From IMG/VR virus record IMGVR_UViG_3300028887_000066, positions 243,550 through 307,549 of that record: DNA of 64,000 nt; one strand, given 5' to 3'. Source of the DNA: a virus. Taxonomy: Duplodnaviria; Heunggongvirae; Uroviricota; Caudoviricetes. The notes under the pieces were generated by a model. It saw only the letters and a list, made by a program, of their open reading frames with translations, made no database searches and had not been told where the DNA came from. Every line of letters begins with the position of its first letter. Within the stretch, counting starts at the first letter, position 1. This document shows, one piece after another, positions 5,827 to 61,112 of this stretch. A program made the position numbers and the translations under genes.

Positions 5827-6492
5827 ATGGCGGATAAAAAATCAGACATTATTGTTGCCGTAGTCGCAGGACATGGTAAACAGGTTCAAGGAAAATGGTC
5901 TCCTAAGATAGAAAAAGGTATGGACATACCATCATTTCTCACTGAAGGCGGGCGTTTCAGGGAATGGAAATACGCGAGAGTCGTAGCTGACGATATTGTG
6001 ACAATACTCAAATCATACGGATATGACGCAAGGCTTATAGTTCCTGAAGATGATGATGTTACGTTAGGTGAAAGAGTGAGACGTGTGAATGCGCTTTGCA
6101 CGAAATACGGCGCAGGAAAAGTCCTTATGCTCGAAATTCACGCAAACGCCGTTGGATACGGCGATAAATGGGAATCTGCAAACGGTTGGGAGTGTTATAC
6201 TACTGTAGGTAAAACTAAATCCGACACATTAGCAGAATACCTCTATAAAAGGGCTGAAAAGAACTTCCCAAAAGACATAAAAATAAGAAAGGATCTTACT
6301 GATGGTGACTGTGATAAAGAAATGAATTTCTATGTGATTAGAAAAGTGAATTGTCCAGCCATCCTTAGTGAAAACTTCTTCTATACAAATAAAAAAGACC
6401 TTGAATATATGTCATCAGATGCAGGAATACACGCAGTGGTAAGGACACATGTGGAAGGTACTATCGATTACATCAATTCATTGAAAAAATAA
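5827..6492 (+). CDS. N-acetylmuramoyl-L-alanine amidase (Amidase_3 family); likely endolysin
   Basis: VVAGHGK.., LEIHANAVGYGD, ILSENFFYTN motifs typical of the Amidase_3 / CwlV-AmiC fold. Confidence 0.85.
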   Translation: MADKKSDIIVAVVAGHGKQVQGKWSPKIEKGMDIPSFLTEGGRFREWKYARVVADDIVTILKSYGYDARLIVPEDDDVTLGERVRRVNALCTKYGAGKVLMLEIHANAVGYGDKWESANGWECYTTVGKTKSDTLAEYLYKRAEKNFPKDIKIRKDLTDGDCDKEMNFYVIRKVNCPAILSENFFYTNKKDLEYMSSDAGIHAVVRTHVEGTIDYINSLKK

Positions 6493-6496
6493 AAAT

Positions 6497-6530
6497 AATG
6501 GGAGTGTTTTTTCCGCTCCCATTATTTTTT
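6497..6530 (+). terminator. Rho-independent (bidirectional) terminator after the amidase gene
   Basis: 8-bp stem aatgggag/ctcccatt, then a T-run attatttttt. Confidence 0.7.
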
Positions 6531-6857
6531 ATCTTCCGTCATATGTTCTATTTCTAACGATTCAAATGAATAGGCATTGACACCATCAAAAGCCTTTTTT
6601 AAATGCTGCATTATGATGGCCCATTTACTATCCGCACGTCCCCTTATCTCATCCTGTTTTCCAACTTTTTGCCAAATATTCATTGCAGCTTTTATATGGG
6701 CCATTGCTTTGTCACAATTGTTGTAAAGCTGATTAGGTTCTGCATTACGCATATGGTTCCCCTCATTAACTATTTTTTTAACAGACGCTTTTATTATCTC
6801 ATGTAATTCTGATTCCTTTATTTTCATTGTATTTTTCATTTTTATTTTAATCCCCAA
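6522..6857 (-). CDS. hypothetical protein carrying the shared N-terminal leader (KESELHEIIKASVKKIVNE)
   Basis: ORF; N-terminal motif shared with 15744-16358, 19880-20695 and 21265-21909. Confidence 0.55.
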   Translation of the reverse strand: MGIKIKMKNTMKIKESELHEIIKASVKKIVNEGNHMRNAEPNQLYNNCDKAMAHIKAAMNIWQKVGKQDEIRGRADSKWAIIMQHLKKAFDGVNAYSFESLEIEHMTEDKK

Positions 6858-6860
6858 ACA

Positions 6861-7145
6861 TTATTTTTCTGTACATATTTCCAAAATATCTTCAGCCATT
6901 GATTTCGCCAAATTTTTCGGTAATCTAAAATCGCTGAACTTATGTCCATACATACTGAAATATATACTTATATATTTCTCATCATTATCTAATGAATATT
7001 CTATGTTTTCATCACCATAGAAATCATTTTCCTTTAATATATTTGAACCATGCGTAAGGTTCTCTCCATCTTGGGTATGCAAGGTTTCTTTCGTTTTCAT
7101 ACGCTTCTCTCTCAAATGATATATTCCTGTAGGCTTTATGCCCAT
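6861..7145 (-). CDS. hypothetical protein (94 aa; start uncertain, overlaps 7024-7362)
   Basis: ORF. Confidence 0.35.
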   Translation of the reverse strand: MGIKPTGIYHLREKRMKTKETLHTQDGENLTHGSNILKENDFYGDENIEYSLDNDEKYISIYFSMYGHKFSDFRLPKNLAKSMAEDILEICTEK

Positions 7146-7362
7146 TTAAATATACAAAAAGTTTAATCAGCCATTCAATTCCATACCATATATAGAAAAA
7201 TATGTATAACATGTATTTCATCTGTTCCGTATGAATTGTTTCATGATTAATGTCATACTCATTCAATTCCCTTTTCGCATCGCTTCTTACAAACAGCACA
7301 CCAAAAAGGTTTATTGCCAAATAACCTTTAAATGGTATTATTTTGTTCTTAACTATTTTCAT
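7024..7362 (-). CDS. small membrane-associated protein with HExxH motif (NHETIH); putative metallopeptidase-like
   Basis: HETIH plus a hydrophobic segment; assignment speculative. Confidence 0.4.
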   Translation of the reverse strand: MKIVKNKIIPFKGYLAINLFGVLFVRSDAKRELNEYDINHETIHTEQMKYMLYIFFYIWYGIEWLIKLFVYLNGHKAYRNISFEREAYENERNLAYPRWREPYAWFKYIKGK

Positions 7363-7375
7363 CTTCTTTCTTGTC

Positions 7376-7386
7376 TTTATCTTTGT
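7376..7386 (+). promoter_or_regulatory. plus-strand -7 box TATCTTTG about 35 nt upstream of the 7420 start
   Basis: tatctttg at 7378-7385 matches the TAnnTTTG consensus. Confidence 0.45.
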
Positions 7387-7419
7387 AATAAATACTTAGG
7401 AAAAAGTATTTATAGACGT

Positions 7420-9174
7420 ATGAAAAAGATAACAATTACTGAATCACAATACAAAAAACTCAAGAAAAACATACTTGAGGGAATCGATTGGTCTAAAAAC
7501 CCAAACGGTACTATTAACATGTCAGTAAATCAGGACATGACAGATAAGGCTAATAGCGGCATGAATAGTGTAGATACCCGTGTATTCGGCAGTAAAAACA
7601 ATGTACTACATGGCGATAATACAGGACATTGGGCAACACATTCACTCTATCAGAACGCCACATCAAAACAGGCTGCAATACAATACTATACGAATGTAGT
7701 TAATTTTGTAAAAAATGGAAGGCAAGGCCAATTAGATGTGCCAGAAAACGTTGAGCCTAAGACTGTTACGGCTGTTAATAAATGGTTTTCAGAGGGTAGA
7801 TCAGACAGATGGATTATTGATGCTGCCACTAAGTCAATCGCCCGTATTCAACAAGAGGCTAACCCATATATAAGCACATTAAACAGAGTGACTTCTACAA
7901 ATTCGGATAAAGTGGCAAGATATACTACGGGTACGGTTACGGGGACTGACGTAAAATATATAGCCCTCTTTACGATGACTGACTTCAATTTTAGTGACGC
8001 TATAAAACACGGTAATGTAAGGCAAAACGGAAACATCGATTCTATCCTTGGTATTACGAAGAGTGAAAGGGAAAAAGGTGACAAGGGTACTGACTATGCC
8101 AATATAGATGTGACATACGATAATAAATATACCCCTGATATTGCCCAAAACTTCTCGCTTAAAAATGTACAGGATGGCCATTATAAACAGCAATACGGAT
8201 TAGGTGATGATAATGGTTATTCAAGTGTTTCCCAGTTCTTGGATAAATCGGTTAATTATGCCGCTTATGCCTTGAAGCAGGAAAACTACCATCCAGATTT
8301 CATTGTCGCACCGCCAAGCTCATCCAAATTCAACCAATACTATTGTACAAATCTCAGTAATAAGTTAGGCGTACCATTTAGACAGGATTTCTTTATAAGG
8401 AATTTGATCAATGTGAAATTCGATAATGGGAGAGACACGCAAGCGATGCTTGAAAAAGGCTTTTCACAGAAGGATATAATGGATTTTGAAAATCAGGTGA
8501 AAAATGTGGCTTACAAAGAGATAGCTTATTTCGTATCTGAACCTATCAGGGAATTAGTCTATTCAAACCAAGCCTTATTCTCAAATATATCATTGGCATT
8601 ACATAGCAGGGAAAAAACACCGATAAATGAGGTATTTGACTGTTTAATGATTTATGTATATAGAACAATAATAAATGCCATTCAGTCAGGCAATGATATA
8701 GTGGAAAAACATCTTGTCCATAATTTTATGGCAAAACAAAACAAGCTGTATCAGAAAAAATACGATTCAACACATATATTTACCCAAATAGTACAGCTTA
8801 TCAATTTGAAAATAGGCAAAAAAGTATTCAATGAGTATATGAAAAAGACATTACAATTAGTAAGACAATACTCAAATACATTGAAAGAGAATGGCTATGC
8901 ACTTCGTTTTGATACGAAAAGAGTCAAAGTAACACAATTCCAAAAGCAATTCCGACCATTCTTGCACAATGTATACATCATTGCTGACAATTACATGAAC
9001 AATGGTGAGCTTATGAAGCAATACAGGAATGCAAAGTTCCTTATATTTGACGAGGATATTAACAGCGGGGCCACCCTCAAACTCTGTATTGATGCCTTAG
9101 AGGAAAAAATACCAGATGCCAACGAAAAGAATATAATGTGTCTTGTAAACGCCTATTCCGCTAAAGGATGGTAA
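7420..9174 (+). CDS. large hypothetical protein (584 aa); C-terminal region has a phosphoribosyltransferase-type motif (FLIFDEDINSGATLK) and a ComF-like D-F-I-V-A-P-P-S-S-S segment
   Basis: Start refined to ATG 7420 (MKKITITESQYKKLKKNILEG). FLIFDEDINSGATL fits the type I PRTase PRPP-binding loop hhhhDDxxxTGxT. Confidence 0.65.
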   Translation: MKKITITESQYKKLKKNILEGIDWSKNPNGTINMSVNQDMTDKANSGMNSVDTRVFGSKNNVLHGDNTGHWATHSLYQNATSKQAAIQYYTNVVNFVKNGRQGQLDVPENVEPKTVTAVNKWFSEGRSDRWIIDAATKSIARIQQEANPYISTLNRVTSTNSDKVARYTTGTVTGTDVKYIALFTMTDFNFSDAIKHGNVRQNGNIDSILGITKSEREKGDKGTDYANIDVTYDNKYTPDIAQNFSLKNVQDGHYKQQYGLGDDNGYSSVSQFLDKSVNYAAYALKQENYHPDFIVAPPSSSKFNQYYCTNLSNKLGVPFRQDFFIRNLINVKFDNGRDTQAMLEKGFSQKDIMDFENQVKNVAYKEIAYFVSEPIRELVYSNQALFSNISLALHSREKTPINEVFDCLMIYVYRTIINAIQSGNDIVEKHLVHNFMAKQNKLYQKKYDSTHIFTQIVQLINLKIGKKVFNEYMKKTLQLVRQYSNTLKENGYALRFDTKRVKVTQFQKQFRPFLHNVYIIADNYMNNGELMKQYRNAKFLIFDEDINSGATLKLCIDALEEKIPDANEKNIMCLVNAYSAKGW

Positions 9175-9443
9175 AAATCATACAGTTTCTTGAAGAAAGA
9201 TGTATTACCATATATTTCAGACATTAAATCATCCTGAAAATAGGAGTAGTCGTCAATACATTCGTTTCCGAACATGTCAGTATCATAACGGTATGATTTG
9301 ACAAAATCGGAAACGATTTTTTTCGCCTCTTTACGAAAGAGCTTCAAATCTTTTCCTTCTATAGTAAATTCATCAGTAGCCTTCTCTTCGATTCCCTCAA
9401 GGCACTCTTTGATCAATTCCCTTTTATTCAATTTTTTTCCCAT
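9153..9443 (-). CDS. hypothetical protein (start refined to internal Met)
   Basis: The promoter-like caaagata box at 9459-9466 lies inside the longer ORF, so Met at 9443 is preferred. Confidence 0.45.
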   Translation of the reverse strand: MGKKLNKRELIKECLEGIEEKATDEFTIEGKDLKLFRKEAKKIVSDFVKSYRYDTDMFGNECIDDYSYFQDDLMSEIYGNTSFFKKLYDFYHPLAE

Positions 9444-9490
9444 TTGTCTCTTGTTTTGACATCGCAAAGATAGGATTTTATTTTCACATG

Positions 9491-9522
9491 AACAAAAAAA
9501 CATTCACTTTTTCAAGTGAATG
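9491..9522 (-). terminator. Rho-independent terminator closing the leftward tRNA transcription unit
   Basis: 9-bp perfect hairpin cattcactt/aagtgaatg followed (minus sense) by TTTTTTTG. Confidence 0.7.
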
Positions 9523-9534
9523 CTATGATATTAG

Positions 9535-9616
9535 ACTCCGTAGTTGGATTTGAACCAACGTGTGCAACGCAAATGGTTTTGCAGACCATCCCTATCGACC
9601 CCTCAGGCATACGGAG
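9535..9616 (-). tRNA. tRNA, type II-like (13-nt variable arm), apparent anticodon GCA (Cys)
   Basis: Manual fold: acceptor CTCCGTA/TACGGAG, anticodon stem ATGGT/ACCAT with loop CTGCAAA, variable arm TTGCGTTGCACAC, T-arm GTTGG-TTCAAAT-CCAAC. Confidence 0.55.
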
Positions 9617-10035
9617 GTAAAAATTCTAAAACATTACGTTTCATTCGGCGAAACCGTATAACGCTTGTTTTTAATGAACAAGTGATGAAACTTATCCGAC
9701 GTATCGGAAAGGACAAACCATTTGTACGTTTTCCATCAGCCGTAACGCTTTAGGAGGATTTCCTGGTAATCTTGCTCGGTTTCATTAAGCATCCTCGGGC
9801 CCAACTACATTCCCTATTCCACCTTTACCGTCTACACCGTGGTCAAATGGAAAAAACCACGATATGCTTCTCTCTTAACGTCTTTTCTAGGATAGACCTG
9901 AGTTTTTCGAACCGCTCCTCCTGCATCTGTCCTGATATGTTTGACAGCACCCATATAAAACTTCGGAGGAGGCAAACTATATAAATATACGCACTCCCTA
10001 GAACACCTACACTGATGTTGTGTAGCCCTATCGTG

Positions 10036-10107
10036 CGGCCTATGCAGGGATCGAACCCGCGACGTTTCCTTTTAGGGAGGACTGCTCTGCCACTGAGCTA
10101 ATAGACC
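10036..10107 (-). tRNA. candidate amber suppressor tRNA (anticodon CUA)
   Basis: Manual fold: acceptor GGTCTAT/ATAGGCC, D-arm GCTC-AGTGGCA-GAGC, anticodon stem GTCCT/AGGAA with loop CCCTAAA (positions 34-36 = CTA, A37), T-arm GCGGG-TTCGATC-CCTGC. C33 instead of U33 is atypical. Confidence 0.5.
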
Positions 10108-10147
10108 TTTCAATTAGGGAGCATTGTATCTCCCCGATTGTTTTTGC

Positions 10148-10185
10148 ATTGCAAAGATAAGGCATTTTATTGGAATGGCCAAATT
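10148..10185 (-). promoter_or_regulatory. Bacteroidetes-type promoter (TTTGGCCAT..20 nt..TATCTTTG) reading leftward into the suppressor tRNA
   Basis: caaagata (10151-10158) and tggccaaa (10176-10183) on plus = -7 and -33 on the minus strand. Confidence 0.65.
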
Positions 10186-10204: not shown

Positions 10205-10531
10205 TCAAAGAATTTCGACTACTTTTCCGTAGATGTTATTCCGACTTATTACCCCATTGGCGTGACCGTGATTGTTGCCGATCAAATACCTGTCACCAGG
10301 TTTTACCGACCATATCAAATGAAGATAATAGTGTCCGTTCACCTTACATAGTACAATATCGCGTTTCTTTAATTCAGTAGCATCATTCACGGGAATACAA
10401 ATTACAGGCTGCTTTGATTTCAGAATAGGCAACATACTATTACCTATACCAGTGATTTTAGCTACTTTCCCCTGTCTTAATGCTTCAGCGGAATACTTAT
10501 TCTCAAACCCTTCATATTCAACATTCCACAT
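10205..10531 (-). CDS. S24-family (LexA/UmuD-like) serine peptidase domain protein, no DNA-binding domain
   Basis: GNSMLP (Ser nucleophile motif) and a downstream Lys (LCKVNG); 108 aa standalone catalytic domain. Confidence 0.6.
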   Translation of the reverse strand: MWNVEYEGFENKYSAEALRQGKVAKITGIGNSMLPILKSKQPVICIPVNDATELKKRDIVLCKVNGHYYLHLIWSVKPGDRYLIGNNHGHANGVISRNNIYGKVVEIL

Positions 10532-11192
10532 AATCTAAGGTTTTAATCAAGTGCCACAATGACATTATACTTTCAACGTAGTTTTTCTTTTGTGTTTCCA
10601 TACTGTATGTATCACCCGTACCACCGTGTGTAGAGCCAAAATTGAATTTTATCTCCTCAGGCTTTCCGTAATCTGGATTTTTCGGATTTTCATTCTCATT
10701 ATGCAAGAATTCACGATACTCATTCTTAGTGCAGGTTTTATAGGCGTAACAATACTCATTATGACTTAAAAGATACAGTGTGTGTTCCGACACTTGCTTG
10801 TAGATGTCTTTTTTGTCCCTGTTTTTTCTGTCATAACAGTAGATGGATATAGGCATATCGTTATTTTCTTCATAACTTTGATATGTTCCGAAACGACCAT
10901 TACGCTCTTTTAGCACTTTCTGAAATGTGTCCCTTTTTCTTACAACAAAGTCGTCATCACTATAATTTAGAACATTCTTAAATGGCTCTAATTCTGAATA
11001 AAAAGTATTTGAGTACCCTCTGTTCTTCAGCATTTTTTCGCACTTATTAACCTGTTCTGTGATGTACTTCAATGCTTCATCCTCACTGAGGTTGTGCTTT
11101 ATACAGTAATAAACTACATGTGTGTGGTGATATACGTCCCACTTTCTCTCGGTCATCCAATTTTTCAGGAAAATATAACTATTGTTTTTCAT
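10518..11192 (-). CDS. hypothetical protein (224 aa)
   Basis: ORF. Confidence 0.6.
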   Translation of the reverse strand: MKNNSYIFLKNWMTERKWDVYHHTHVVYYCIKHNLSEDEALKYITEQVNKCEKMLKNRGYSNTFYSELEPFKNVLNYSDDDFVVRKRDTFQKVLKERNGRFGTYQSYEENNDMPISIYCYDRKNRDKKDIYKQVSEHTLYLLSHNEYCYAYKTCTKNEYREFLHNENENPKNPDYGKPEEIKFNFGSTHGGTGDTYSMETQKKNYVESIMSLWHLIKTLDYVEC

Positions 11193-11421
11193 AATTTTAA
11201 TCGTATTTGTAAAAAGTAATTATTGTTTTTAATGTGTGATCAATTTTTAACTGAAAAATCAATCGAAAAAAGCAAAATCCCATTTCAAAATACGATTATC
11301 GGATAACCACGGATTTTAGTAACCTACCATTTCTGTCTTTTCATAAATTCAGACGTTTTTTAATTAATGATTATTTTCTTTAGAATTAACATTACAAATA
11401 TACAAATCGTTTTGCATATTG

Positions 11422-11493
11422 TAGGCCGCGCAGGGGTCGAACCTGCCATCTTCTGATCCAGAGTCAGACGTGTTACCACTACACCAGCAGCCT
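11422..11493 (-). tRNA. tRNA-Gln (anticodon CUG)
   Basis: Manual fold: acceptor AGGCTGC/GCGGCCT, D-stem GTGT/ACAC, anticodon stem TCTGA/TCAGA, loop CTCTGGA, T-arm GCAGG-TTCGACC-CCTGC. Confidence 0.8.
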
Positions 11494-11503
11494 GTTTATT
11501 GAG

Positions 11504-11577
11504 TAGGGACGAAGAGGGTCAAACTCTTACCTTTTGGTTCAAAGCCAAATGTGCAGAAGTCGCTACACCACATCCCT
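11504..11577 (-). tRNA. tRNA-Gln (anticodon UUG), atypical D-loop
   Basis: Acceptor AGGGATG/CGTCCCT, anticodon stem TTTGG/CCAAA with loop CTTTGAA, T-arm AAGAG-TTTGACC-CTCTT; the D-loop lacks GG. Confidence 0.5.
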
Positions 11578-11719
11578 ATAAAATACTACGGATAAAATAT
11601 ATGACTTACCTCGGCGGGCCGCATACTCGACCACTTCACCACCTACCAGATCTGTCCTCGTTTAGTATGATAAGAGAGTATGGCAACTTATAATCAAATA
11701 TATTGATCAGTAGTATTAG

Positions 11720-11792
11720 TACGCCTAACAGGATTCGAACCCGTATAAAACACTTTAGAAGAGTGTTGCCTAATCCATTCGGCCACAGGCGC
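11720..11792 (-). tRNA. tRNA-Arg (anticodon UCU)
   Basis: Anticodon stem ACACT/AGTGT, loop CTTCTAA, T-arm ACGGG-TTCGAAT-CCTGT, acceptor GCGCCTG/TAGGCGT. Confidence 0.75.
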
Positions 11793-11798
11793 GTTTTG

Positions 11799-11870
11799 TA
11801 CCCCGACCCAGAATCGAACTGGAAACTAAATCTTAGGAGGATTTTGTTATATCCATTTAACTATCAGGGC
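11799..11870 (-). tRNA. tRNA-Arg (anticodon CCU)
   Basis: D-stem GTTA/TAAC, anticodon stem AAATC/GATTT, loop CTCCTAA, T-arm TCCAG-TTCGATT-CTGGG. Confidence 0.7.
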
Positions 11871-11885
11871 TTTAACATTGTTTAG

Positions 11886-11972
11886 TAGCGCGTATGGGAT
11901 TCGAACCCATGAGGGCGTTTTATGCCCACTACATTGAAAGTGTAGCGACCTAGACCACTAGTCCAACGCGCC
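11886..11972 (-). tRNA. tRNA with Glu anticodon UUC but an 18-nt stem-loop variable arm (type II architecture)
   Basis: Acceptor GGCGCGT/ACGCGCT, anticodon stem CTACA/TGTAG with loop CTTTCAA, variable arm TGGGCATAAAACGCCCTC (GGGC/GCCC stem), T-arm ATGGG-TTCGAAT-CCCAT. Confidence 0.55.
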
Positions 11973-11980
11973 ATATATTG

Positions 11981-12054
11981 TAGCGGTAGCGAGGCTCAAA
12001 CTCGCAATCTCCACATTGAGAGTGTGGTGACTTAATCAGTTCGTCTATACCGCC
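11981..12054 (-). tRNA. tRNA-Glu (anticodon CUC)
   Basis: Acceptor GGCGGTA/TACCGCT, anticodon stem CCACA/TGTGG with loop CTCTCAA, T-arm GCGAG-TTTGAGC-CTCGC. Confidence 0.65.
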
Positions 12055-12203
12055 ATAAATGATACCTGAACAGTTGCAACTTCTTTTCCTATGCAGACAC
12101 TTTACTATGGACTGTTGTTGTCTCTTACGTAACGCTCTACAGTCTAAACGGTCATTCTCCGCAGGCAATATGCAAGAATCAGATATTCAAGTATCGTATT
12201 TCG

Positions 12204-12240
12204 CTGCAAATATAAGATTAATTTTTCAATTGGCCAAATA
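12204..12240 (-). promoter_or_regulatory. Bacteroidetes-type promoter (TTTGGCCAA..20 nt..TATATTTG) heading the leftward tRNA operon
   Basis: caaatata 12207-12214 and ttggccaaa 12230-12238; the tRNA array and its terminator (9491-9522) lie downstream. Confidence 0.65.
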
Positions 12241-13316: not shown

Positions 13317-14936
13317 TTATTTTACATATAAATATCTTTTAATTTCCCCTTTTAACGTCTTGGAAAATGGTTTGCCATAAATAATAAAAGACGAAATTTG
13401 CTCATTTACTGGCAATTTACCATTTATTTTTTTCCTTTCATCATCAATAAGACGGCTCATTTCAGATAAATCTTCAAGGGTCTTGAATCTTTTAGCGGAA
13501 GGATAAACAATAGCTTTAAGCCTATTCTCATTTTTGTCAAGATATACAATGGACTCGCTTATAATGCCACTACTGTTAATGATCTCCTCTATTTCTTTGG
13601 GGTTGATGTTTTTCCCGTCATTTTTAATTATGAGATCACTTCTTCCCTCAAGAAATAGATTACCATCCTCGTCAAAATAGCCTACATCGCCTGTTCTCAT
13701 CCATCCATTGTCAAACACCTCATCCGTAGCTTGTTCATTTCCGTAATATCCGAGCATTACATTATCGCCCATCACATATATTTGGTTTCCATCCCTTACC
13801 TCTATCTGCATCCTGGGAGCCGTTTTCCCACAAGAACGAAATATATGTTCGTTTTGATCACTATATGTGATGATAGGTGAGCATTCAGTCATCCCGTATC
13901 CGACTGTAAACGGTATGTGATAGTCAATTAAAGCTCTTTCCACTTCTGCATCCAATTCAGCACCACCTATTATAATTTCATAGAAATTGCCCCCTAAAGC
14001 CGTCTTTATGACACGGCCTATGAGTTTATCCGCCAATGGTTTAAAAAGCCTGTAGAATGGCTTAAAATAAGTTTTATGGATATATTTGAATATATTATCC
14101 CTAATAAGCGTTTCGATTAATAACGGGACGACAATTACTATGCATGGTTTGGTTTTTTTGAATGTGGACAGCATATTTTTTACCGTTAAAGGTTGAGTCA
14201 TGAAATGTACATTTACCCCAAATACAATAGCCCCAAGAAAATCATACATTATACCATACATATGGGCCAACGGTAATAATGAAACTACATTATCTCCAGT
14301 TTTTAACATATGTACCACTTCTAATGCAAACGCTAAATTTGATGATAATGCCCGTGACGGTATCATTACGCCTTTTGGAGAGGACATTGTACCGCTTGTA
14401 TAGTTTATTGAAATTAGCTCGTCAGGTGAATAGTGGTGTATTTTATCACAGAATTCTTCAGCGGTACACCCCTCAAGCTTCATACTACCTATTACATATG
14501 GGAGTTTATTTTCACCTGAAAATAGGAGGCTGAAATCATCCAATGAGTAAACGGCTGACAGTTTTCCGAAACACTCAAGACTATTCTGCATTTCATCCCA
14601 AATCGCTTCTGATATGAATAGGACTTTTGAATCCGAATGCTCTATAAGATGGGTAATCTTATCTGTCGTAAATTCATGCAGAATAGGCACGGCAACAGTT
14701 CCATATGTAGTAGTAGCGAGATATGTTATCCCCCAATTTATTGAGTTCATTCCACAAATAGCCACTTTATCACCCTTTTTAATGTTCAGGCAATCAAACG
14801 CAAACCATAATTGCCGTATACCATAAGCTACATCAGAATAATTAAAAGAACGAATGGGATAATCCGTCATAGATGGAATATCCCAAAACTTTTTGAATGA
14901 TTCTGCTATGTATTGTGAATAGGTAAGGTTATTCAT
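13317..14936 (-). CDS. AMP-dependent synthetase/ligase (long-chain acyl-CoA synthetase-like)
   Basis: AMP-binding motif YTSGTMSSPKGV, GYGMTE, and hinge TGDVGYFDEDGNLFLEGRSDLIIKNDG. Confidence 0.85.
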   Translation of the reverse strand: MNNLTYSQYIAESFKKFWDIPSMTDYPIRSFNYSDVAYGIRQLWFAFDCLNIKKGDKVAICGMNSINWGITYLATTTYGTVAVPILHEFTTDKITHLIEHSDSKVLFISEAIWDEMQNSLECFGKLSAVYSLDDFSLLFSGENKLPYVIGSMKLEGCTAEEFCDKIHHYSPDELISINYTSGTMSSPKGVMIPSRALSSNLAFALEVVHMLKTGDNVVSLLPLAHMYGIMYDFLGAIVFGVNVHFMTQPLTVKNMLSTFKKTKPCIVIVVPLLIETLIRDNIFKYIHKTYFKPFYRLFKPLADKLIGRVIKTALGGNFYEIIIGGAELDAEVERALIDYHIPFTVGYGMTECSPIITYSDQNEHIFRSCGKTAPRMQIEVRDGNQIYVMGDNVMLGYYGNEQATDEVFDNGWMRTGDVGYFDEDGNLFLEGRSDLIIKNDGKNINPKEIEEIINSSGIISESIVYLDKNENRLKAIVYPSAKRFKTLEDLSEMSRLIDDERKKINGKLPVNEQISSFIIYGKPFSKTLKGEIKRYLYVK

Positions 14937-15743: not shown

Positions 15744-16358
15744 TTACTTAACTTTTACTCTTGCCCTGAAATCTTCTATACAAGCATCGATATTATAATG
15801 TACGTCATTGTAATTTCCGACACCATATTTCCTCGCATACTTATTATCTTCTTCCTCATTGTTTCCAAGGGCTTCCTTACGCTGTCTGTCAAATGTGTTT
15901 CCCTTTGTCGGGATATAGCCTCTGAATTTGCTTCCATCCCAATAGACCATGAAAATTACGGGTATTTCCCAATCACCGCCCGCACTAACAATAACGTATG
16001 GCATACCATTATAATCTCTCAAATCGCCAATGTAATCCACATTTTCTGGATCCCATTTTACTTTGGAAATATCATTGAACAAGTCTTTAAGGCTATTCTT
16101 ATGCTCTTTCTTCCAACACTGATTTCTAATGATATTTACAATATCCTTCCATTTAATCTTGCCATTTGCCTCATATTCAACCTCAATGGCGACTTTCTCA
16201 ACATGTTCAGTAAATTCAGTCGGGGTTATTTTAACCCCTGTCCTTCCGCTGCTTGGGAGTTCTACATCCATGTTAACATATTTGTTTTTATTTTCTTTCA
16301 GAACACGCTTAATGGACTCTCTCACTAAGCCTCTCAATTCAGATTCCCTTATCTTCAT
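15744..16358 (-). CDS. hypothetical protein with the shared N-terminal leader (MKIRESELRGLVRESIKRVLKE)
   Basis: ORF; leader motif. Confidence 0.6.
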   Translation of the reverse strand: MKIRESELRGLVRESIKRVLKENKNKYVNMDVELPSSGRTGVKITPTEFTEHVEKVAIEVEYEANGKIKWKDIVNIIRNQCWKKEHKNSLKDLFNDISKVKWDPENVDYIGDLRDYNGMPYVIVSAGGDWEIPVIFMVYWDGSKFRGYIPTKGNTFDRQRKEALGNNEEEDNKYARKYGVGNYNDVHYNIDACIEDFRARVKVK

Positions 16359-17116
16359 TACTCAGACATTTCTTTTTTGCTTTTCTTATACTTCTCCCTT
16401 GGTTTTGGACAAAGTTTTACCAATTTACTGTGCCACTCATTCCAAACGGGCTTGTATTTAACCTTAAAATCATCCCATTTAAAGCCATTTTCAAGGTCTG
16501 TAAAAATATCAGTATATAATGGACGTGCAACATAAAAATCTGTAATAAGCCCGTTTTCGGCAATTTGGCAGGCATACATAAGAAGCCTTATTGAATGAAA
16601 TAGGCTCTTCGCACCACATCTCATGTCCAAATCCTTCTTCACTGTCATTTTTTTCTTCGCTTTTGCAAATGAATTGTTTGACACGCTTCCAAACGACTCA
16701 CGTAGCAACCATTTATTTAACTTGAAGTATTGCCTGTAATCAGCTATTGTCTTTTTATTGTCATCCGTATTATACAACACCTCGTTAGTAAGAAGAATGG
16801 CCTCCAATGCAAAAGGCGTATGCTCATTTATCATATCGATGAAATCACTTTCTCTCACTACTTGCACGTCCGTCTTTGGTACATCCATCATTTCAATGGT
16901 AAATTGATGCAATCGAATATCACATTTTTCATTATCAAATACGCCATCCTGATCAATAAAGTCGGTATCATCAGCTACAACGATAGCCATATCACGATCC
17001 GATTCCTTTGTCATTGTGCCATAAACGGCGGAACCGCGTGAAAACATCGTAAGTCTTTCATTATCTACAAATAACTTTGCTACGCAATCCGCTACATCAT
17101 TACAATTTACTGTCAT
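16358..17116 (-). CDS. nucleotidyltransferase-fold (Pol-beta superfamily) protein
   Basis: GSAVYGTMTKESDRDMAIVV = G-S-x3-G-x5-S-D-x-D; exact subfamily (MNT, OAS/CD-NTase-like) undetermined. Confidence 0.45.
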   Translation of the reverse strand: MTVNCNDVADCVAKLFVDNERLTMFSRGSAVYGTMTKESDRDMAIVVADDTDFIDQDGVFDNEKCDIRLHQFTIEMMDVPKTDVQVVRESDFIDMINEHTPFALEAILLTNEVLYNTDDNKKTIADYRQYFKLNKWLLRESFGSVSNNSFAKAKKKMTVKKDLDMRCGAKSLFHSIRLLMYACQIAENGLITDFYVARPLYTDIFTDLENGFKWDDFKVKYKPVWNEWHSKLVKLCPKPREKYKKSKKEMSE

Positions 17117-19879: not shown

Positions 19880-20695
19880 TTATCTATTAAAAGCAGTTAT
19901 CAATTGTTTCAGTAACCATTGCCCTCTTTGGTTCTGTCCTATTTCTTGTCTTAACTGGGCTATTATTGTCTCTATTTTATCATCATCAGGATTATCATAA
20001 TCACCCAAAACTGTCCTCGCAATTGCAGGTATTTTATGCTCTTGGTTATACGCCCATTTCAAATTACTTAATTTACTGAATGGTATCCAAGCAGCCACGT
20101 CTATCTCACCTACCTCACAATTCGCCGTAGATGTCGGATATTGGTCTGTTGTACCATTGACTATGGCTGTAAAACATACGTTAATATCCTTATTGTTGGA
20201 ATTGGTAGAGTATTGGTTTATCCTATTTATATCAATTTTAACGCCTGTTTCCTCATACACCTCACGTGCAATGCCCATTTCAAGTGTCTCATATTGTTTC
20301 ATACCGTTTTTCCCTATGGTATGAGCCATATCAAGGTATCCACCAGGAACGGCAAACAAACCGTTTCCTCCGTGTGCCTTCGGCCCTCTTTTAACCGCCA
20401 ACACGCACCATTCATCATTCTTATTTTTACAGAATGCATAAATGGACATACTCGTATTACGACTTACATAGAAAACCTGACCACCACGCCTTACGGCAAA
20501 ATTATTTTTAGTCTTTGCCCATTCATCACCAAATTTTGTATTAGGATCGTATTCCAATGACACTATATTATTAGGATCTCTTGGGTCATATGGCAATCTG
20601 TTTCTATGCGCTTCCTGTAATCCTTTCTTAATGGATTCTTTTATATGCTGTCTTAATTCTGTTTCCGTTAGTCTCATACAAGTAAATACCTTCAA
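19880..20695 (-). CDS. NUDIX hydrolase with ~100-aa N-terminal extension carrying the shared leader
   Basis: Nudix box GIAREVYEETGVKI (GX5EX7REUXEEXGU); N-terminus MRLTETELRQHIKESIKKGLQE. Confidence 0.8.
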   Translation of the reverse strand: MKVFTCMRLTETELRQHIKESIKKGLQEAHRNRLPYDPRDPNNIVSLEYDPNTKFGDEWAKTKNNFAVRRGGQVFYVSRNTSMSIYAFCKNKNDEWCVLAVKRGPKAHGGNGLFAVPGGYLDMAHTIGKNGMKQYETLEMGIAREVYEETGVKIDINRINQYSTNSNNKDINVCFTAIVNGTTDQYPTSTANCEVGEIDVAAWIPFSKLSNLKWAYNQEHKIPAIARTVLGDYDNPDDDKIETIIAQLRQEIGQNQRGQWLLKQLITAFNR

Positions 20696-20777
20696 AGTGC
20701 AAAAAATGCACTATAAAACGGCAATTAACCATTTATAGTGCATCAAACACAAACAATATCATGAACAACAAAAAACA

Positions 20778-21164
20778 CTATCGTGCCATTTTTACTAAGA
20801 TATTTCTCTTGACCTTTGACGGAATGTTTGCCTCATCATCAAGAATACGTTTCACAATGCTGTATGCTTCACCATACATTTCAGCGGTGGCATCTTCAAT
20901 TTTTTGCCCAGCACGAGGATCAGTACCGTTACGATACCCATACATATACAAATACCCGTCCATAAGATTAAGCTTCAAACTGTGAAGCCAAGGTGACTCG
21001 TTGTTACCATTATCATTCTTCCAACGATGGTAGTTTGCAAAATTAATACTCCGAAGACCTCGCATTTTCATCAAATCCTTCAATGATGCGCGAAGCTCAA
21101 TTTTCCGATAATCCAAAGATTTCTTCTTTCCGAACATGTTCTTAAAATTTTCTAAAAAACTCAT
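20778..21164 (-). CDS. hypothetical protein (128 aa)
   Basis: ORF. Confidence 0.55.
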   Translation of the reverse strand: MSFLENFKNMFGKKKSLDYRKIELRASLKDLMKMRGLRSINFANYHRWKNDNGNNESPWLHSLKLNLMDGYLYMYGYRNGTDPRAGQKIEDATAEMYGEAYSIVKRILDDEANIPSKVKRNILVKMAR

Positions 21165-21264
21165 ATGATTTATATTTGAAACTATATTGTCTCTCTCACC
21201 CTAAATATACAACATTTTTTCCTATTTAAAGCTATTTATTATAATAAAAAACACTTTTTCAAAA

Positions 21265-21956: not shown

Positions 21957-22469
21957 CTATGCTATAAATTTTTTTACCTCGTCCGAAAGGGTCTTTCCAT
22001 CAACATTATTGAGCTTTCCCTTTACATATTTGATACAGAGTCCCATATGTTGTTTTGGCATCGCATTTGTAAACCCGTTCTCATTCATATAGTTTCCAAT
22101 TTCAAGACGCATTTCGTCAAGAGTCGCAGCCTTTGGTAAGAATCCCTGAATTATTGCAATCTCTTTTTCCTCTTTTTCAGCAAGTTCAGGACGGTTTCCT
22201 GTTTTATATGCAATTACAGACTGTTGCCTCTCTTTGATCATCTTATTAAGTATGGAAAGCTTATCTTCATCCGAAATCTCTTTCTTACCATCAATTTCTA
22301 CAAGTTTCTTAACGCCTTGCTCTGATGTTCTGAACTCAATGAATTTAGCCTTAATGAGCTTGTAAACAGCCAATTCCTCTTTCTTTCCACCGACATCAAC
22401 CGTTTTGTCATTTAATGCTTGACTTATTTCCTTTGTCTTTCCTAAAATAAGTTTATCTATATCAATCAT
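21957..22469 (-). CDS. GatB/YqeY domain protein
   Basis: LAEKEEKEIAIIQGFLPKAATLDEMRLEI .. MGLCIKYVKGKLNNVDGKTLSDEVKKFI matches the YqeY family layout. Confidence 0.7.
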   Translation of the reverse strand: MIDIDKLILGKTKEISQALNDKTVDVGGKKEELAVYKLIKAKFIEFRTSEQGVKKLVEIDGKKEISDEDKLSILNKMIKERQQSVIAYKTGNRPELAEKEEKEIAIIQGFLPKAATLDEMRLEIGNYMNENGFTNAMPKQHMGLCIKYVKGKLNNVDGKTLSDEVKKFIA

Positions 22470-23248: not shown

Positions 23249-24359
23249 TAATCGGTATTTCGTATGTAGAAATGTTATCCTCTACAATATAATTCTCATT
23301 GATGCTTGTTACAACATGCGGGTTAGCAAGATAACTGTCAATAGGACGCTTGATTTTTTTATAGTAAAGGAAATTCTCAGGATGCATAACATCCATATAT
23401 GTGCGGTATACCATAATACCAATATCTTCTGCCGTGCGAGTCTCCTTATATTTTTCTTGCCTATCAAAACCGTAGTCATCAATATTGAATTTCTTTTCCA
23501 ATTTGAGTGCGAGTTCAACCCGTTGTTCTGGCGTATCAATCGGAACACCATTTTCCACTTCACATTTAACGGCCTTTGCTATATCCTCATAATAGACATT
23601 ATGACTATAGTCACGCACCCAAGAATCAAAATATTCAATATATTGTTCCTTACCGTCGAAATTAACCTTACACCATTTATGTGCCTTTGAGTCAAAACAG
23701 TTAGCCAGATCTTCCCAACAAAAATATGATTCGAAATCACTTGCATAATAATAACTGTTTTTGTGTGATTCCTCGCTGCTCCATTCACTTATGAATTTAA
23801 TTTCGCCATTTTCAAGAACAGGCTCTATATTTGTAAAACCACGAAGAGTCTTTATGTTAGTAACATTCCTGTCTTTCAAAAAACGCATCAGTAAATCAAT
23901 GGGGTCGAACAAATCCTGTAGATGCAAATCACAATGGAAATTCATATGCCCCCAATTTAAACGGTCAAATATTTCCCGCCTAATATCTTTGGCGATAAAA
24001 TCTTTTCTGTTCTGACTTAATCGGTTATAACCGTGTGTTGCGATTTCGCCTGAATGCATTGCAGCATATGTATGACGGCCAAGCCCATAATGGAATGACA
24101 ACCATATAAGATCATCTACCTTAGATGTCGGCAATACTTTTAATGGGGCAGACTTCTTACGACGTTTCTTCAAAAACTCCCTGAACTCAGCGACTAATTG
24201 ATGATATTCCTCAGAGTCAAAATCTACATTGAAATATTCGTCTTCTCGTTCATTTTTCAACCCTATTGCATATCGATACGACATCCATACTAAATCTTCC
24301 GCATACATGTCGTCAAAATCATTCTTTTTCTTCTTAGTCATTATTTTCTGTTTTTTCAA
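23238..24359 (-). CDS. hypothetical protein (373 aa)
   Basis: Long ORF. Confidence 0.6.
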   Translation of the reverse strand: MKKQKIMTKKKKNDFDDMYAEDLVWMSYRYAIGLKNEREDEYFNVDFDSEEYHQLVAEFREFLKKRRKKSAPLKVLPTSKVDDLIWLSFHYGLGRHTYAAMHSGEIATHGYNRLSQNRKDFIAKDIRREIFDRLNWGHMNFHCDLHLQDLFDPIDLLMRFLKDRNVTNIKTLRGFTNIEPVLENGEIKFISEWSSEESHKNSYYYASDFESYFCWEDLANCFDSKAHKWCKVNFDGKEQYIEYFDSWVRDYSHNVYYEDIAKAVKCEVENGVPIDTPEQRVELALKLEKKFNIDDYGFDRQEKYKETRTAEDIGIMVYRTYMDVMHPENFLYYKKIKRPIDSYLANPHVVTSINENYIVEDNISTYEIPINEG

Positions 24360-24822
24360 CGATGACCAATGCGTGTCTTATAATCTCCCCGTTCATCTTA
24401 TAACCCACTTTATATATGTTAGAAATGCAATTATCGGAAACATCGCCACTGTTTGAGGTGGATACGGCATTATGTATGTCAGGATTGAATTCATCGCCGA
24501 TAGAGCCATATGCTTCGACTCCACATTCTTTCAGTACATTAAATAATTTACTGTAAATCAACTTTATACCTTCACCGTCTGACCCCATTTTATGTGCCAT
24601 TTCACAATCATCGATGACAGTAATTAAAGATAAGATTATTTCTTTTCCTGCCGTATTCCGTATGGTTTCAATTTCCTTCGCCTTTCTCTTCTTGTAGTTA
24701 TCAAATTCGGCTAAAAGCCTAACATACATATCTTGGTAGTCAGGCTGCTTAACCTCTTCATCATTAACTATAACAGGCTGCTCATTTTCAACAGGCATGT
24801 TATTCAACATTGTCTTTAGCAT
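24334..24822 (-). CDS. grpE: GrpE nucleotide-exchange factor
   Basis: LLAEFDNYKKRKAKE .. DEFNPDIHNAV .. GYKMNGEIIRHALVIV align with GrpE's AEFENYRKR and FDP..HEAV..GY..R..RPA.V motifs. Confidence 0.8.
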   Translation of the reverse strand: MLKTMLNNMPVENEQPVIVNDEEVKQPDYQDMYVRLLAEFDNYKKRKAKEIETIRNTAGKEIILSLITVIDDCEMAHKMGSDGEGIKLIYSKLFNVLKECGVEAYGSIGDEFNPDIHNAVSTSNSGDVSDNCISNIYKVGYKMNGEIIRHALVIVEKTENND

Positions 24823-37013: not shown

Positions 37014-37847
37014 TTATATTCGATCGGGTATAAATTTGACAATCTTACCGTTTTCTATTGTAAATAATTGTTTACAGTCAAGACAGGCAAAATACTTATC
37101 GATTATTGGCTCCGCAAGTTTATCCGTATACCCATTTGCATATATTTCTTTTTCCATTTCGTATGAAATACGCTGTGAATGCCCGAAAACTTGATACCAC
37201 CCTCTGAATTCATAACTATAGGGTGTTAGCTCATCCCAATGCGCCCAAATAAACGAGCCATACGGATAACGCCCGCCGCGTGATCTCGATACTGTACCAA
37301 GTGGGGCGATAATACTGTCAATATTATCTGACAATGCCTTATTTAGTGTATCGGCAATATCAGGAATATTAGCAGGCTTTTTGAATATTTTTGGGAGTTT
37401 GTCGTACTTTTGCCGTGTATTAACGTATTCTATCCATTTTTTCAATAAACAACTGTGAGAAAATAAGAATTTCTGCCCATCCTGTTCAGTGTACCATATT
37501 AGACTAAACTTCGACATGTTTTCATGAAACATTGCCCTGATGTCGTCAAGATGTTTATAATCAGTACGACAAGCAGGCATATCGTCGCTTATATAGGGGC
37601 CGAAATCGTGATTTCCTAACAATAATAGCACATTATCAGGAAATTTGTCCTTAAAATCAAGTATTTCTTCAAAATTGGCTATAGCATCTTCTTTTGTTAT
37701 ACCTTCCCAAGGATATGGATCCAAATAATCCCCAAGAAAAACCACAAACGCATTAGAATGTTCTTTAACATATTCTACCACAGGTTTCCAAAATGTGCGG
37801 CCATGTACATCAGGGACTATAATTATCTTTCTTTCTTTACTGTTCAT
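37014..37847 (-). CDS. calcineurin-like metallophosphoesterase (PPP/ApaH-lambda phosphatase-like)
   Basis: VPDVHG, FLGDYLD and GNHD motifs. Confidence 0.85.
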   Translation of the reverse strand: MNSKERKIIIVPDVHGRTFWKPVVEYVKEHSNAFVVFLGDYLDPYPWEGITKEDAIANFEEILDFKDKFPDNVLLLLGNHDFGPYISDDMPACRTDYKHLDDIRAMFHENMSKFSLIWYTEQDGQKFLFSHSCLLKKWIEYVNTRQKYDKLPKIFKKPANIPDIADTLNKALSDNIDSIIAPLGTVSRSRGGRYPYGSFIWAHWDELTPYSYEFRGWYQVFGHSQRISYEMEKEIYANGYTDKLAEPIIDKYFACLDCKQLFTIENGKIVKFIPDRI

Positions 37848-42650: not shown

Positions 42651-44006
42651 TCACTCAATGGTTATACCTATCTTTTTCACGTACTCAGCAACAAGCTTTT
42701 TCATGAACTGTTCACCATTGAATCCCGCTTCAAGGAACTTGAGCAAGTATGGGCTGTATCCTGACATAAAGACGTTACCATCCTTATCCACCTCAGGACA
42801 GGTCTTATTCCTTGAATTCAGATTCCACCAAACAATTTTCGTCTTAAAGCCGTTTTGTTGGAAGATGCGCATTGTCTCGTCCTTTGACTGTTTTGAACCA
42901 CAGTCAAATTCCATGTCACTGAGGACGACCAACCACTCAGGGGCGTTTTTAGCATCAAGACCCTTCAACAGACGCATTACAGCCGCAAAATCTGTATTAC
43001 TGCAATCACCCGTGTACATCGAGGCAATTTCGCGCTCATATTGGTTCTTGCAATGGCTAAGATTCTGACGATGCGTCCTTACACCCCATCCATAAGAAGT
43101 AACCTCATTTTCGACACCAAGCTCAAGCAATTGAGGATTGGACGAGAAAGAGACCACCTTGTTAGGTGCATATGTAGAACACTTTGAAAGGTAATGCCCG
43201 ATAGCAATAGCCTTTCCATAGGAATCATTACCATCCTGCATAGAGCCTGACGAGTCGATAACAGGAATCCAACTTCCACTGATTTTCTCTATCTTGTCGA
43301 AGAAAAGATCTGGATCAATCTTAGTACGATTCTTATAGATGTCATACACGGTCGTAGTGGAAATCTTCATTTCCTTCTTGCCATCCTTGACATCGGCAAG
43401 GTACTTCTCAAAACGGGCCTTTGTATCCTCCTTTTTGAGGAAACGCTGATAATATTTGATCAACGCAAGCGAAGGAACATGCTCGAACTCAATTTCCTCT
43501 GTGTTCTTACGGGATAATTTGTTTTCCACGGTATCACACTTGATGAACTTGCCATACTGCTGCTTATTCATACCCCAATACTTTGCAATCTCACGGGCGA
43601 CCATCAGATTCTTTGAGGAATAACGTGGCATCCACTTCTTAGCAAGCTCATTACCCTTCTTGATTTCATCCTTCAAGTAATCAAGTGCCTCATTAAAAGC
43701 TGCCGTACCATGAAACATAGTCCAAACATCATCAAAACGTCCTGCCAACACCATATCAGTAATGGAGACATGCGCCTGCTTCATCAATTCACGTCCAAGG
43801 TCACGCTTTCCAAGACCGTATCGTGGGTCACGGACAAACATTGCGAATGCCTTTTCAAAAGCTGACGTACCTATACGTACCTCATCAACATGCTTCTGAA
43901 AATACTCTGTCATAAACAGCAAGTCCAACAGTGGATTCAATGTAGACTTGTAGGAAACATCACCGTTTTCTGTCAACTTCTGGTTGAAAATTTCTTCTAA
44001 ATTCAT
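42651..44006 (-). CDS. von Willebrand factor A (MIDAS) domain protein, DUF2828-like
   Basis: MIDAS motif VIDSSGSM (DxSxS) around residue 250. Confidence 0.65.
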   Translation of the reverse strand: MNLEEIFNQKLTENGDVSYKSTLNPLLDLLFMTEYFQKHVDEVRIGTSAFEKAFAMFVRDPRYGLGKRDLGRELMKQAHVSITDMVLAGRFDDVWTMFHGTAAFNEALDYLKDEIKKGNELAKKWMPRYSSKNLMVAREIAKYWGMNKQQYGKFIKCDTVENKLSRKNTEEIEFEHVPSLALIKYYQRFLKKEDTKARFEKYLADVKDGKKEMKISTTTVYDIYKNRTKIDPDLFFDKIEKISGSWIPVIDSSGSMQDGNDSYGKAIAIGHYLSKCSTYAPNKVVSFSSNPQLLELGVENEVTSYGWGVRTHRQNLSHCKNQYEREIASMYTGDCSNTDFAAVMRLLKGLDAKNAPEWLVVLSDMEFDCGSKQSKDETMRIFQQNGFKTKIVWWNLNSRNKTCPEVDKDGNVFMSGYSPYLLKFLEAGFNGEQFMKKLVAEYVKKIGITIE

Positions 44007-44047: not shown

Positions 44048-44085
44048 CTGCAAAGATACGACTATTTTTTGAATTGGCCAAATAA
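44048..44085 (-). promoter_or_regulatory. Bacteroidetes-type promoter (TTTGGCCAA..20 nt..TATCTTTG) for 42651-44006
   Basis: caaagata 44051-44058 and ttggccaaa 44075-44082. Confidence 0.65.
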
Positions 44086-45651: not shown

Positions 45652-45753
45652 ATGTTTTTTAATTAATACATTGCAAATATACGGCAAAAAAATAGAACCA
45701 CCAAAATATTTCATTGATGGTTCTATCCATGATTATGAAAAAAGTAAAAAACA

Positions 45754-52349: not shown

Positions 52350-52387
52350 ATGCAAAGATAAGACAATTATTTCAAACGGCCAAATCA
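52350..52387 (-). promoter_or_regulatory. Bacteroidetes-type promoter (TTTGGCCGT..20 nt..TATCTTTG) for 52036-52329
   Basis: caaagata 52353-52360 and cggccaaa 52377-52384. Confidence 0.6.
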
Positions 52388-61074: not shown

Positions 61075-61112
61075 ATGCAAAGATAAGGCTTTTTCCCCAA
61101 TTAGCCAAATAA
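61075..61112 (-). promoter_or_regulatory. Bacteroidetes-type promoter (TTTGGCTAA..20 nt..TATCTTTG)
   Basis: caaagata 61078-61085 and tagccaaa 61102-61109. Confidence 0.6.

Follow-up and report, generated by a model that had tools for sequence, protein, structure and literature searches.

A CUA-anticodon tRNA with a Bacteroidota-type promoter in a megaphage region that uses the standard genetic code

Suppressor tRNAs with the anticodon CUA (Sup-CTA) are known from phages of genetic code 15, among them Lak phages, crAss-like phages and members of other clades (PMC6784885; bioRxiv 10.1101/2021.08.26.457843; PMC9523058; PMC11210395). TAG depletion has been described by Borges et al. in the standard-code relatives of recoded phages. 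For TGA, a suppressor tRNA has been found in a standard-code relative of recoded phages, and the authors proposed that a suppressor in a standard-code genome is a step before the code change (bioRxiv 10.1101/2021.08.26.457843). Phage suppressor tRNAs are usually taken as markers of recoding, also by gene callers and annotators. The locus described here holds a well-formed, apparently promoter-driven CUA tRNA in a near-Lak phage of the gut or rumen whose readable quarter uses TAG freely as a stop codon.

The window, a stretch of 64,000 nucleotides, is the reverse complement of positions 48,346-112,345 of the metagenomic JGI contig Ga0310696_10000012 (355,767 bp), which has an ENA twin of 356,049 bp. 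Sequence comparison identifies the source as a megaphage with Bacteroidota-type promoters, with the Lak group and other megaphages as its nearest detected relatives. The first-pass annotation had raised a connection to Lak-type phages, and it holds: the Hsp70 shares 52-56% identity with its counterparts in the 634-735 kb genomes deposited as 'uncultured phage' (LR7565xx/LR745206) and about 51% with those in Prevotella Lak phages. The AMP-binding enzyme has bacterial homologues at about 41% identity, Bacteroidales proteins among them. Neither an exact 45-nt match of the CUA tRNA nor relatives of three neighbouring proteins were found in viral contigs, which means that the collection does not include the lineage. 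A megablast search of GenBank phages with 25 kb gave no match, and a 40-kb region of Lak-C1 around a weak DNA match contained no tRNAs.

The tRNA gene and its predicted transcription unit

The elements of the locus, all on the minus strand, are as follows.

11421..12238, minus strand: array of six tRNAs (Glu-CTC, Glu-TTC, Arg-CCT, Arg-TCT, Gln-TTG, Gln-CTG) with its promoter at 12207-12238, outside the suppressor unit
10205..11192, minus strand: a 224-aa gene with no function assigned and a 108-aa Peptidase_S24-like gene, delimited by strain and relative comparison
10152..10183, minus strand: predicted Bacteroidota-type promoter, with a -33 box TTTG (10183-10180), 20 nt and a -7 box TATCTTTG (10159-10152), from motif enrichment
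10111..10140, minus strand: 5' leader hairpin CAAU-C-GGGGAG / CUCCCU-A-AUUG, from RNA folding and strain comparison
10036..10107, minus strand: CUA tRNA gene of 72 nt, from ARAGORN, Rfam RF00005 and the RNAfold cloverleaf, identical across 6 assemblies
9617..10035, minus strand: 3' trailer with hairpins (10035-9990), then a non-coding spacer of about 420 nt to tRNA-Cys
9535..9616 (about), minus strand: tRNA-Cys (GCA), from ARAGORN and Rfam
9499..9524, minus strand: terminator-like hairpin of 11 pairs followed by a T-run, 3' of tRNA-Cys

The sequence at 10036-10107 is a genuine class-I tRNA with the anticodon CUA and belongs to a known kind, the phage-encoded amber-suppressor tRNA. ARAGORN places it at 10035-10107 (minus strand) with the anticodon CTA and names it 'Pyl' by the default of the tool. 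Rfam RF00005 matches 10036-10107 (minus strand) over its full length (model positions 1-71 of 71) with 50.9 bits, where the gathering score is 29, and with E = 5.6e-8 in a search of the whole window. Infernal, in its alignment, and RNAfold, in its minimum-energy structure, arrive at the same cloverleaf. The acceptor stem has 7 bp (GGUCUAU/AUAGGCC), with G1-C72 and a U3.G70 pair included; the D arm (GCUC-AGUGGCA-GAGC) has a 4-bp stem and a 7-nt loop with G18G19; the variable loop has 5 nt (ACGUC); and the T arm (GCGGG-UUCGAUC-CCUGC) has a 5-bp stem and the canonical TTCGATC loop. The anticodon arm (GUCCU-CCCUAAA-AGGAA) has a stem of five positions whose top pair is a G27.A43 mismatch, the one non-standard pair of the cloverleaf. 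The discriminator is G73 (10036), and CCA is not encoded. The anticodon lies at 10075-10073 (TAG on the plus strand, 10073-10075) in the 7-nt loop CCCUAAA (10077-10071), where position 33 is C, the complement of G10076, rather than U. The same loop has a purine at position 37 in the context A36-A37-A38, which is typical of tRNAs for codons starting with U and marks sites of isopentenyl-A37 modification in general.

The first-pass annotation had folded this interval by hand. Its 72-nt cloverleaf is borne out by ARAGORN, Rfam/Infernal and RNAfold, which also agree with it in placing CTA at positions 34-36 of the loop CCCTAAA. The C at position 33, which it had found odd, is present in the Infernal alignment and is rare but recurrent in phage tRNAs. 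It had proposed a run of tRNAscan-SE or ARAGORN, and an anticodon elsewhere or a pseudogene-like score would have counted against the tRNA; ARAGORN returned CTA, and the Rfam score is 50.9 bits. Another register of the anticodon, such as UAA-Leu with a 9-nt loop, receives no support from ARAGORN, Infernal or RNAfold. The Infernal scores of the eight tRNAs in the window range from 50.9 to 61.1, and although that of the CUA tRNA is the lowest, it is no outlier because tRNA-Cys scores 51.7.

The -33/-7 promoter that had been claimed upstream of the tRNA is found at 10183-10152, and its pattern is enriched. Against an expectation of 2.6, the window has 15 copies of TTTG-N18-21-TAnnTTTG, a count reached in 0 of 100 shuffles, and 14 of the 15 are on the coding strand. 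The promoter of the CUA tRNA falls in an extended class, TTTGGCC...CTTATMTTTG, shared with the six-tRNA array and four more sites. The members found by the motif scan are the following.

10152-10183, minus strand: extended promoter of the CUA tRNA
12207-12238, minus strand: extended promoter of the six-tRNA array
44051-44082, minus strand: extended promoter motif
52353-52384, minus strand: extended promoter motif
61078-61109, minus strand: extended promoter motif
63023-63054, minus strand: extended promoter motif

The 32-nt extended consensus TTTGGCCAATTGAAAAAWTARTCTTATMTTTG has at least six copies on the coding strand, and a 78%-identical copy occurs in a relative's contig (L315, 14635-14685). 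Its sequence suggests a promoter class that is specific to the phage and elaborates the Bacteroidota -33/-7 boxes. A scan for a phage-specific recurrent motif returned generic Bacteroidota promoter boxes only.

The leader hairpin lies between the predicted transcription start and the 5' end of the tRNA, and its stem is conserved while its loop varies between strains. A pattern scan of 9617..10035 found no promoter motif. The 420-nt spacer contains a GGTTCGAAA motif and was considered as a possible site of a hidden RNA, but Rfam has no match to it at E values up to 10. Because there is no promoter motif between the two genes and a terminator-like site follows tRNA-Cys, the CUA tRNA and tRNA-Cys are probably co-transcribed, with 9499..9524 as the probable end of the unit.

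The eight tRNAs called by ARAGORN are all on the minus strand between 9534 and 12054. Two of them have unusual variable regions. tRNA-Glu(TTC) (11885-11972, minus strand) reaches 88 nt through an inserted 16-nt hairpin, GGGC-AUAAAAC-GCCC-U, in its variable region, and tRNA-Cys (about 9534-9616, minus strand) reaches 83 nt through a 10-nt insertion at the corresponding site. Both tRNAs normally have short variable loops, and their orthologues in the relative's contig are 73 and 72 nt long, without the insertions.

TAG usage around the tRNA and in other phage loci

The window and two flanking loci (about 9 kb on each side), together 81.7 kb or 23% of the genome, use the standard code, and TAG is not avoided in them. 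ORFs bounded by all three stops cover about 93-94% of the 81.7 kb, and reading TAG as sense brings no gain in coverage (0.92, against 0.93 with the standard stops). TAG is the stop of 27 of the 137 ORFs in the 81.7 kb; among the 111 ORFs of at least 80 aa the stops are TAG in 20, TAA in 63 and TGA in 28. Thus 18-20% of the genes in the 81.7 kb end in TAG, which is no strong depletion, and the share of 18% here against 12% in the syntenic relative gives no sign of TAG avoidance. The median distance to the next in-frame stop is 10 codons after TAG, 6 after TAA and 5.5 after TGA, and the tails behind TAG show no excess length. Several TAG codons stand at natural domain ends, as in an OmpA domain at residues 405-497 of 509, an IMPDH-like domain reaching 378 of 389, a methyltransferase domain reaching 271 of 288 and a YqeY domain reaching 167 of 170. 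The TAG at 1693-1695, which the first-pass annotation had read as a stop, is indeed a stop.

Three in-frame pairs of ORFs across a TAG, the only ones in the 81.7 kb, were considered as read-through candidates and rejected as ordinary gene junctions: two are junctions consisting of a stop, one codon and an ATG, and in the third further stops follow. The endolysin-family amidase at 5827-6492 (PHROG E = 8.6e-36), 3.5 kb from the CUA tRNA, is intact. No structural genes were found in the 81.7 kb, and the Pfam hits of its called genes include no release factor (RF2) or synthetase, which are optional in known systems. The expectation that any recoded genes would lie outside the window agrees with these results. 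The role in TAG recoding that the first-pass annotation had implied finds no support in the 81.7 kb, which contain no genes with in-frame TAG.

The relation between CUA tRNAs and recoding was surveyed with at least about 190 distinct phage CUA tRNAs from three scans of viral contigs. Loci of at least 6 kb were classed as recoded-like when the coverage gained with TAG as a sense codon exceeded both 0.08 and twice the gain of a TGA control; this is a crude test, applied to chunks of at most 15 kb, so that the code is read locally beside the tRNA. By this crude test, 19 of 111 loci with a U33 CUA tRNA and 0 of 20 with a C33 CUA tRNA are recoded-like among the matches listed, with p of about 0.04 as a rough hand estimate. 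The median share of TAG stops is 17% in both groups among the matches listed. By itself, then, a CUA tRNA predicts local recoding only weakly, as most of the surveyed loci that carry one look standard-coded beside it, and taking it as a hallmark of recoding, as in the first-pass annotation, is unreliable.

The survey also shows how C33 and the G27.A43 mismatch are distributed. In a scan open to either pyrimidine at position 33, 97 of the 99 CUA tRNAs among the matches listed have U33 and 2 have C33, and the unselected tRNAs in loci with a U33 suppressor have C33 in 12 of 361 cases (3.3%) among the matches listed. C33 as a trait specific to suppressors is rejected, since it occurs in about 2% of phage CUA tRNAs against a background of about 3%. 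The C33 CUA tRNAs are diverse, with 33 distinct sequences among 35, from at least 33 different viral contigs. A G-A pair at 27-43 is present in 17 of 191 phage CUA tRNAs among the matches listed. As an observation in its own right, C33 occurs in 3-9% of the ARAGORN-called phage tRNAs of the surveyed viral loci (L014-L313), with many anticodons, and a recurrent C33 type of Arg-CCU with the loop CCCCUAA gave at least 10 matches in a pattern-selected set. No description of C33 in phage tRNAs was found in the literature searched.

Insertion, origin and genomic setting of the tRNA

Six independent assemblies have the CUA tRNA in identical form, but with strains that agree at 98-100% overall this is only weak evidence of selection. 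The segment at 10205-11192 is a mosaic patch, with 47-78% nucleotide and 54% amino acid identity between strains and flanks at 98-100%, and it stops at the promoter of the CUA tRNA. The 224-aa protein encoded there is represented by only two protein clusters in a database of 5.8 billion proteins. A syntenic relative, ENA NODE_109 (111 kb), has an AMP-binding enzyme 47% identical to the one in the window and the tRNAs Trp-CCA, Glu, Glu, Arg, Gln and Cys; it lacks the CUA tRNA and both companion genes, and the suppressor unit is therefore a lineage-specific insertion. The relative's contig L315 (111 kb) carries IS605 OrfB/TnpB (Cas12f-like) genes at 13399-14562 and 19900-21225, beside the tRNA array and near the amidase gene.

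Among the tRNAs of the relative, the best match to the CUA tRNA is Trp-CCA at 67% identity, within the range of 51-69% seen for orthologous pairs. The CUA tRNA and this Trp-CCA are the only G73 tRNAs in the two clusters, and 31 of 32 phage Trp tRNAs among the matches listed have G73. Positions 33 and 35 are the only ones at which the phage Trp loop CUCCAAA departs from CCCUAAA. Against a Trp origin stands the pair G1-C72, phage Trp tRNAs having mostly A1-U72, and a nearest-neighbour comparison with about 1,080 phage tRNAs puts Trp tRNAs in general among the least similar to the CUA tRNA. Nearest-neighbour comparison and blastn do not discriminate, the best matches being a mix of Ala, Phe, Asn, Val, Ile, Thr and Lys, and blastn found no similar tRNA in GenBank phages, only mixed matches at 76-82%. 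When metagenomes were scanned for the body of the tRNA, with the anticodon arm left free, a single further copy turned up, which was identical, and there were no variants. In two scans of genomes, no bacterial tRNA shared either this body or its T-arm and acceptor strand. Because of U35 and G73, and of tRNA-Trp as the best match in the relative, Gln or Trp is the most plausible amino acid for the tRNA to carry.

The window also contains genes for Hsp70, GrpE, UvrD helicase, DNA methyltransferases, an AMP-binding enzyme and NAD-salvage enzymes. The Hsp70 (45754-47628, minus strand) is DnaK-like (Pfam E = 1.5e-202), and a GrpE-domain protein is encoded at 24334-24822 (minus strand); by these domain matches the phage carries part of its own chaperone system. 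A further set of genes is related to the processing and repair of RNA.

44854-45714, minus strand: Thg1-like tRNA-His guanylyltransferase
53322-54020, minus strand: RNA ligase
16358-17116, minus strand: Pol-beta-type nucleotidyltransferase
42651-44006, minus strand: TROVE/DUF2828-like RNA-binding protein
21957-22469, minus strand: YqeY (GatB-tail-like) protein
37014-37847, minus strand: metallophosphoesterase

As predicted from sequence, this tRNA and RNA repair set suggests an investment against host defences that target tRNAs.

Two further features of the region deserve mention. The NAD-salvage block (62072-62674, minus strand, and 5868-9568 of the flanking locus L004) encodes isochorismatase-like, NAD synthase, NAPRTase, NUDIX and CTP_transf_like proteins, the last of which is possibly an NMN adenylyltransferase; the block agrees with the title of PMC11662467, on NAD+ systems of gut jumbo phages. 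A reverse transcriptase of 362 aa (RVT_1) is encoded in the flanking locus L008 (15260-16348), about 3.75 to 4.8 kb beyond position 1 of the window. Three independent Logan assemblies, L010, L011 and L012, all break 1.0-1.4 kb upstream of RVT_1, in or just after a 355-aa gene, and the locus could be a diversity-generating retroelement whose variable target breaks assemblies.

Possible roles and comparison with known systems

The explanation that we favour, with a rough probability of 0.45 and hence tentatively, is that the phage is still standard-coded and expresses the tRNA as an accessory amber suppressor, probably a weak one. It comes first because the 23% of the genome that was read uses the standard code, with TAG as 18-20% of the stops. 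The tRNA would be transcribed by the host RNA polymerase, probably as a unit with tRNA-Cys, and matured by RNase P and, because no CCA is encoded, by a CCA-adding enzyme. A host synthetase would charge it, presumably with Gln or Trp, and the charged tRNA would compete with release factor 1 at UAG codons. The efficiency of suppression would probably be low because of C33 and the G27.A43 mismatch. The suppressor would have been acquired without recoding, and the tRNA would not be the decoder of a code-15 genome. Low-level read-through at UAG would place short tails (median 10 codons) on TAG-ended phage and host proteins, and may buffer amber mutations. An active suppressor would be costly in a genome region where 18-20% of the genes end in TAG; its activity should therefore be very weak, or its role not one of decoding. 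It also counts against an accessory suppressor that the nearest known relatives, the Lak phages, are TAG-recoded and have CUA suppressors.

The best-surviving rival, although rather unlikely, is that the tRNA is the decoder of a partial code-15 system, in which a suppressor expressed early under a host-type promoter would switch on the translation of TAG-containing genes for late functions, structure and lysis in other parts of the genome; such a switch has been proposed for crAss-like and other recoded phages. The closest Hsp70 proteins are those of the TAG-recoded Lak phages and of the LR7565xx megaphages, published surveys report Sup-CTA in 40-52% of code-15 phages, suppressor tRNAs have been reported in standard-coded regions of recoded genomes, and the CUA tRNA has its own promoter. 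Yet there is no in-frame TAG in 82 kb, where TAG ends 18-20% of the genes, whereas published recoded lineages show TAG depletion and most Lak replication genes are reported to be in the alternative code too. The endolysin-family gene beside the tRNA reads in the standard code, the tRNA belongs to a lineage-specific insertion, and local recoding is seen at 0 of 20 C33 loci against 19 of 111 U33 loci among the matches listed. If the late genes were recoded after all, the phage would simply be another code-15 megaphage.

An evolutionary proposal, which we consider unlikely, is that the phage is a TAG-side intermediate near Lak, in which a suppressor would have been captured on a mobile mosaic segment while TAG was undepleted and the genome fully standard-coded, with C33 and G27.A43 acting as an attenuator of read-through. 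Under this proposal the capture of the suppressor would come before the depletion of TAG, the reverse of the order proposed so far. C33-type CUA tRNAs might then form a class of 'safe' suppressors, an idea for which the 0 of 20 testable loci locally recoded among the matches listed are relevant. If the whole genome is standard-coded, the phage would be a natural example of 'suppressor first, recoding later' for TAG, and a test bed for tolerated read-through and for the tuning of suppressor strength by C33.

It is distinctly unlikely that the gene is a decaying or inactive sense tRNA, perhaps Trp-like with the changes C35U and U33C, which persists only owing to its recent arrival. Its Infernal score is the lowest of the eight, it has both C33 and the G27.A43 mismatch, the strains are too alike for conservation to prove selection, and the 81.7 kb offer no TAG-containing genes for it to serve. 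On the other side, the stems are intact, the T-loop and G18G19 are canonical, A36-A37-A38 suits the reading of UAG, and the gene has a dedicated consensus promoter. The two oddities are not confined to it, as the G-A pair at 27-43 recurs in other phage CUA tRNAs (the 17 of 191 among the matches listed) and C33 is found in about 3% of otherwise normal-looking phage tRNAs. Work by Bare and colleagues in Nature in 1983 is also said to have found that a yeast tRNA can suppress amber codons without U33, which counts against inactivity.

Roles other than suppression, recoding or a relic are improbable even when taken together. A non-decoding role, as a decoy or sponge that occupies a host nuclease directed at tRNAs or an enzyme that modifies them, is speculation and very improbable. 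The Thg1-like enzyme, RNA ligase, nucleotidyltransferase, TROVE-like protein and YqeY in the window would fit it, and according to PMC10264068, phage tRNAs with altered anticodon loops are reported to evade anticodon nucleases; however, position 33 and suppressors are unmentioned there, there is no host CUA tRNA to replace, and nothing ties C33 or CUA to a particular nuclease. There is next to no chance that the gene encodes a pyrrolysine tRNA, which would be favoured only by the CUA anticodon and the label that ARAGORN gives to any CUA tRNA, and which is rejected by the 5-nt variable loop, the 7-nt D loop with G18G19, the five-position anticodon stem and TTCGATC, with no pyl families among the Pfam hits of the called genes in 82 kb. 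In genuine tRNA-Pyl the variable loop has 3 nt, the D loop is short and lacks G18G19, and the anticodon stem has 6 bp.

The accessory suppressor favoured here can be set beside four known systems. Like the Sup-CTA tRNAs of code-15 phages, it is a class-I CUA tRNA encoded by a large phage with Bacteroidota-type promoters and a Lak-like Hsp70, and it stands among other tRNAs in a standard-code region. It differs from them in that no gene is recoded in 82 kb, where TAG makes up 18-20% of the stops, and in having C33, about 98% of the phage CUA tRNAs with such a loop having U33 among the matches listed. The TGA suppressor in a standard-code relative of recoded phages is similar in that a suppressor tRNA occurs in a genome that reads as standard (here in 23% of its length) and in a lineage related to recoded phages; the present tRNA would be the TAG equivalent. 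TAG is undepleted here, which makes the locus a misfit with the proposed order of depletion first and suppressor second.

The other two systems are not from phages. E. coli Su7 (supU) is tRNA-Trp with the anticodon changed from CCA to CUA, and the CUA tRNA resembles Su7 and tRNA-Trp in G73 and in the loop context C32...A36-A37-A38. On the other hand, it has G1-C72, unlike most phage Trp tRNAs, and it is not at the position of the relative's tRNA-Trp. The eukaryotic cytoplasmic initiator tRNA-Met has C33, as in the vertebrate loop CCCAUAA, and so shares C32-C33 before the anticodon; its function shows that C33 is compatible with binding to the ribosome, although it acts as an initiator in the P site, comes from another domain of life and is unrelated to the CUA tRNA in sequence and role. 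What is less usual here is a near-Lak phage whose readable quarter is standard-coded and which carries its CUA tRNA on a mosaic insertion.
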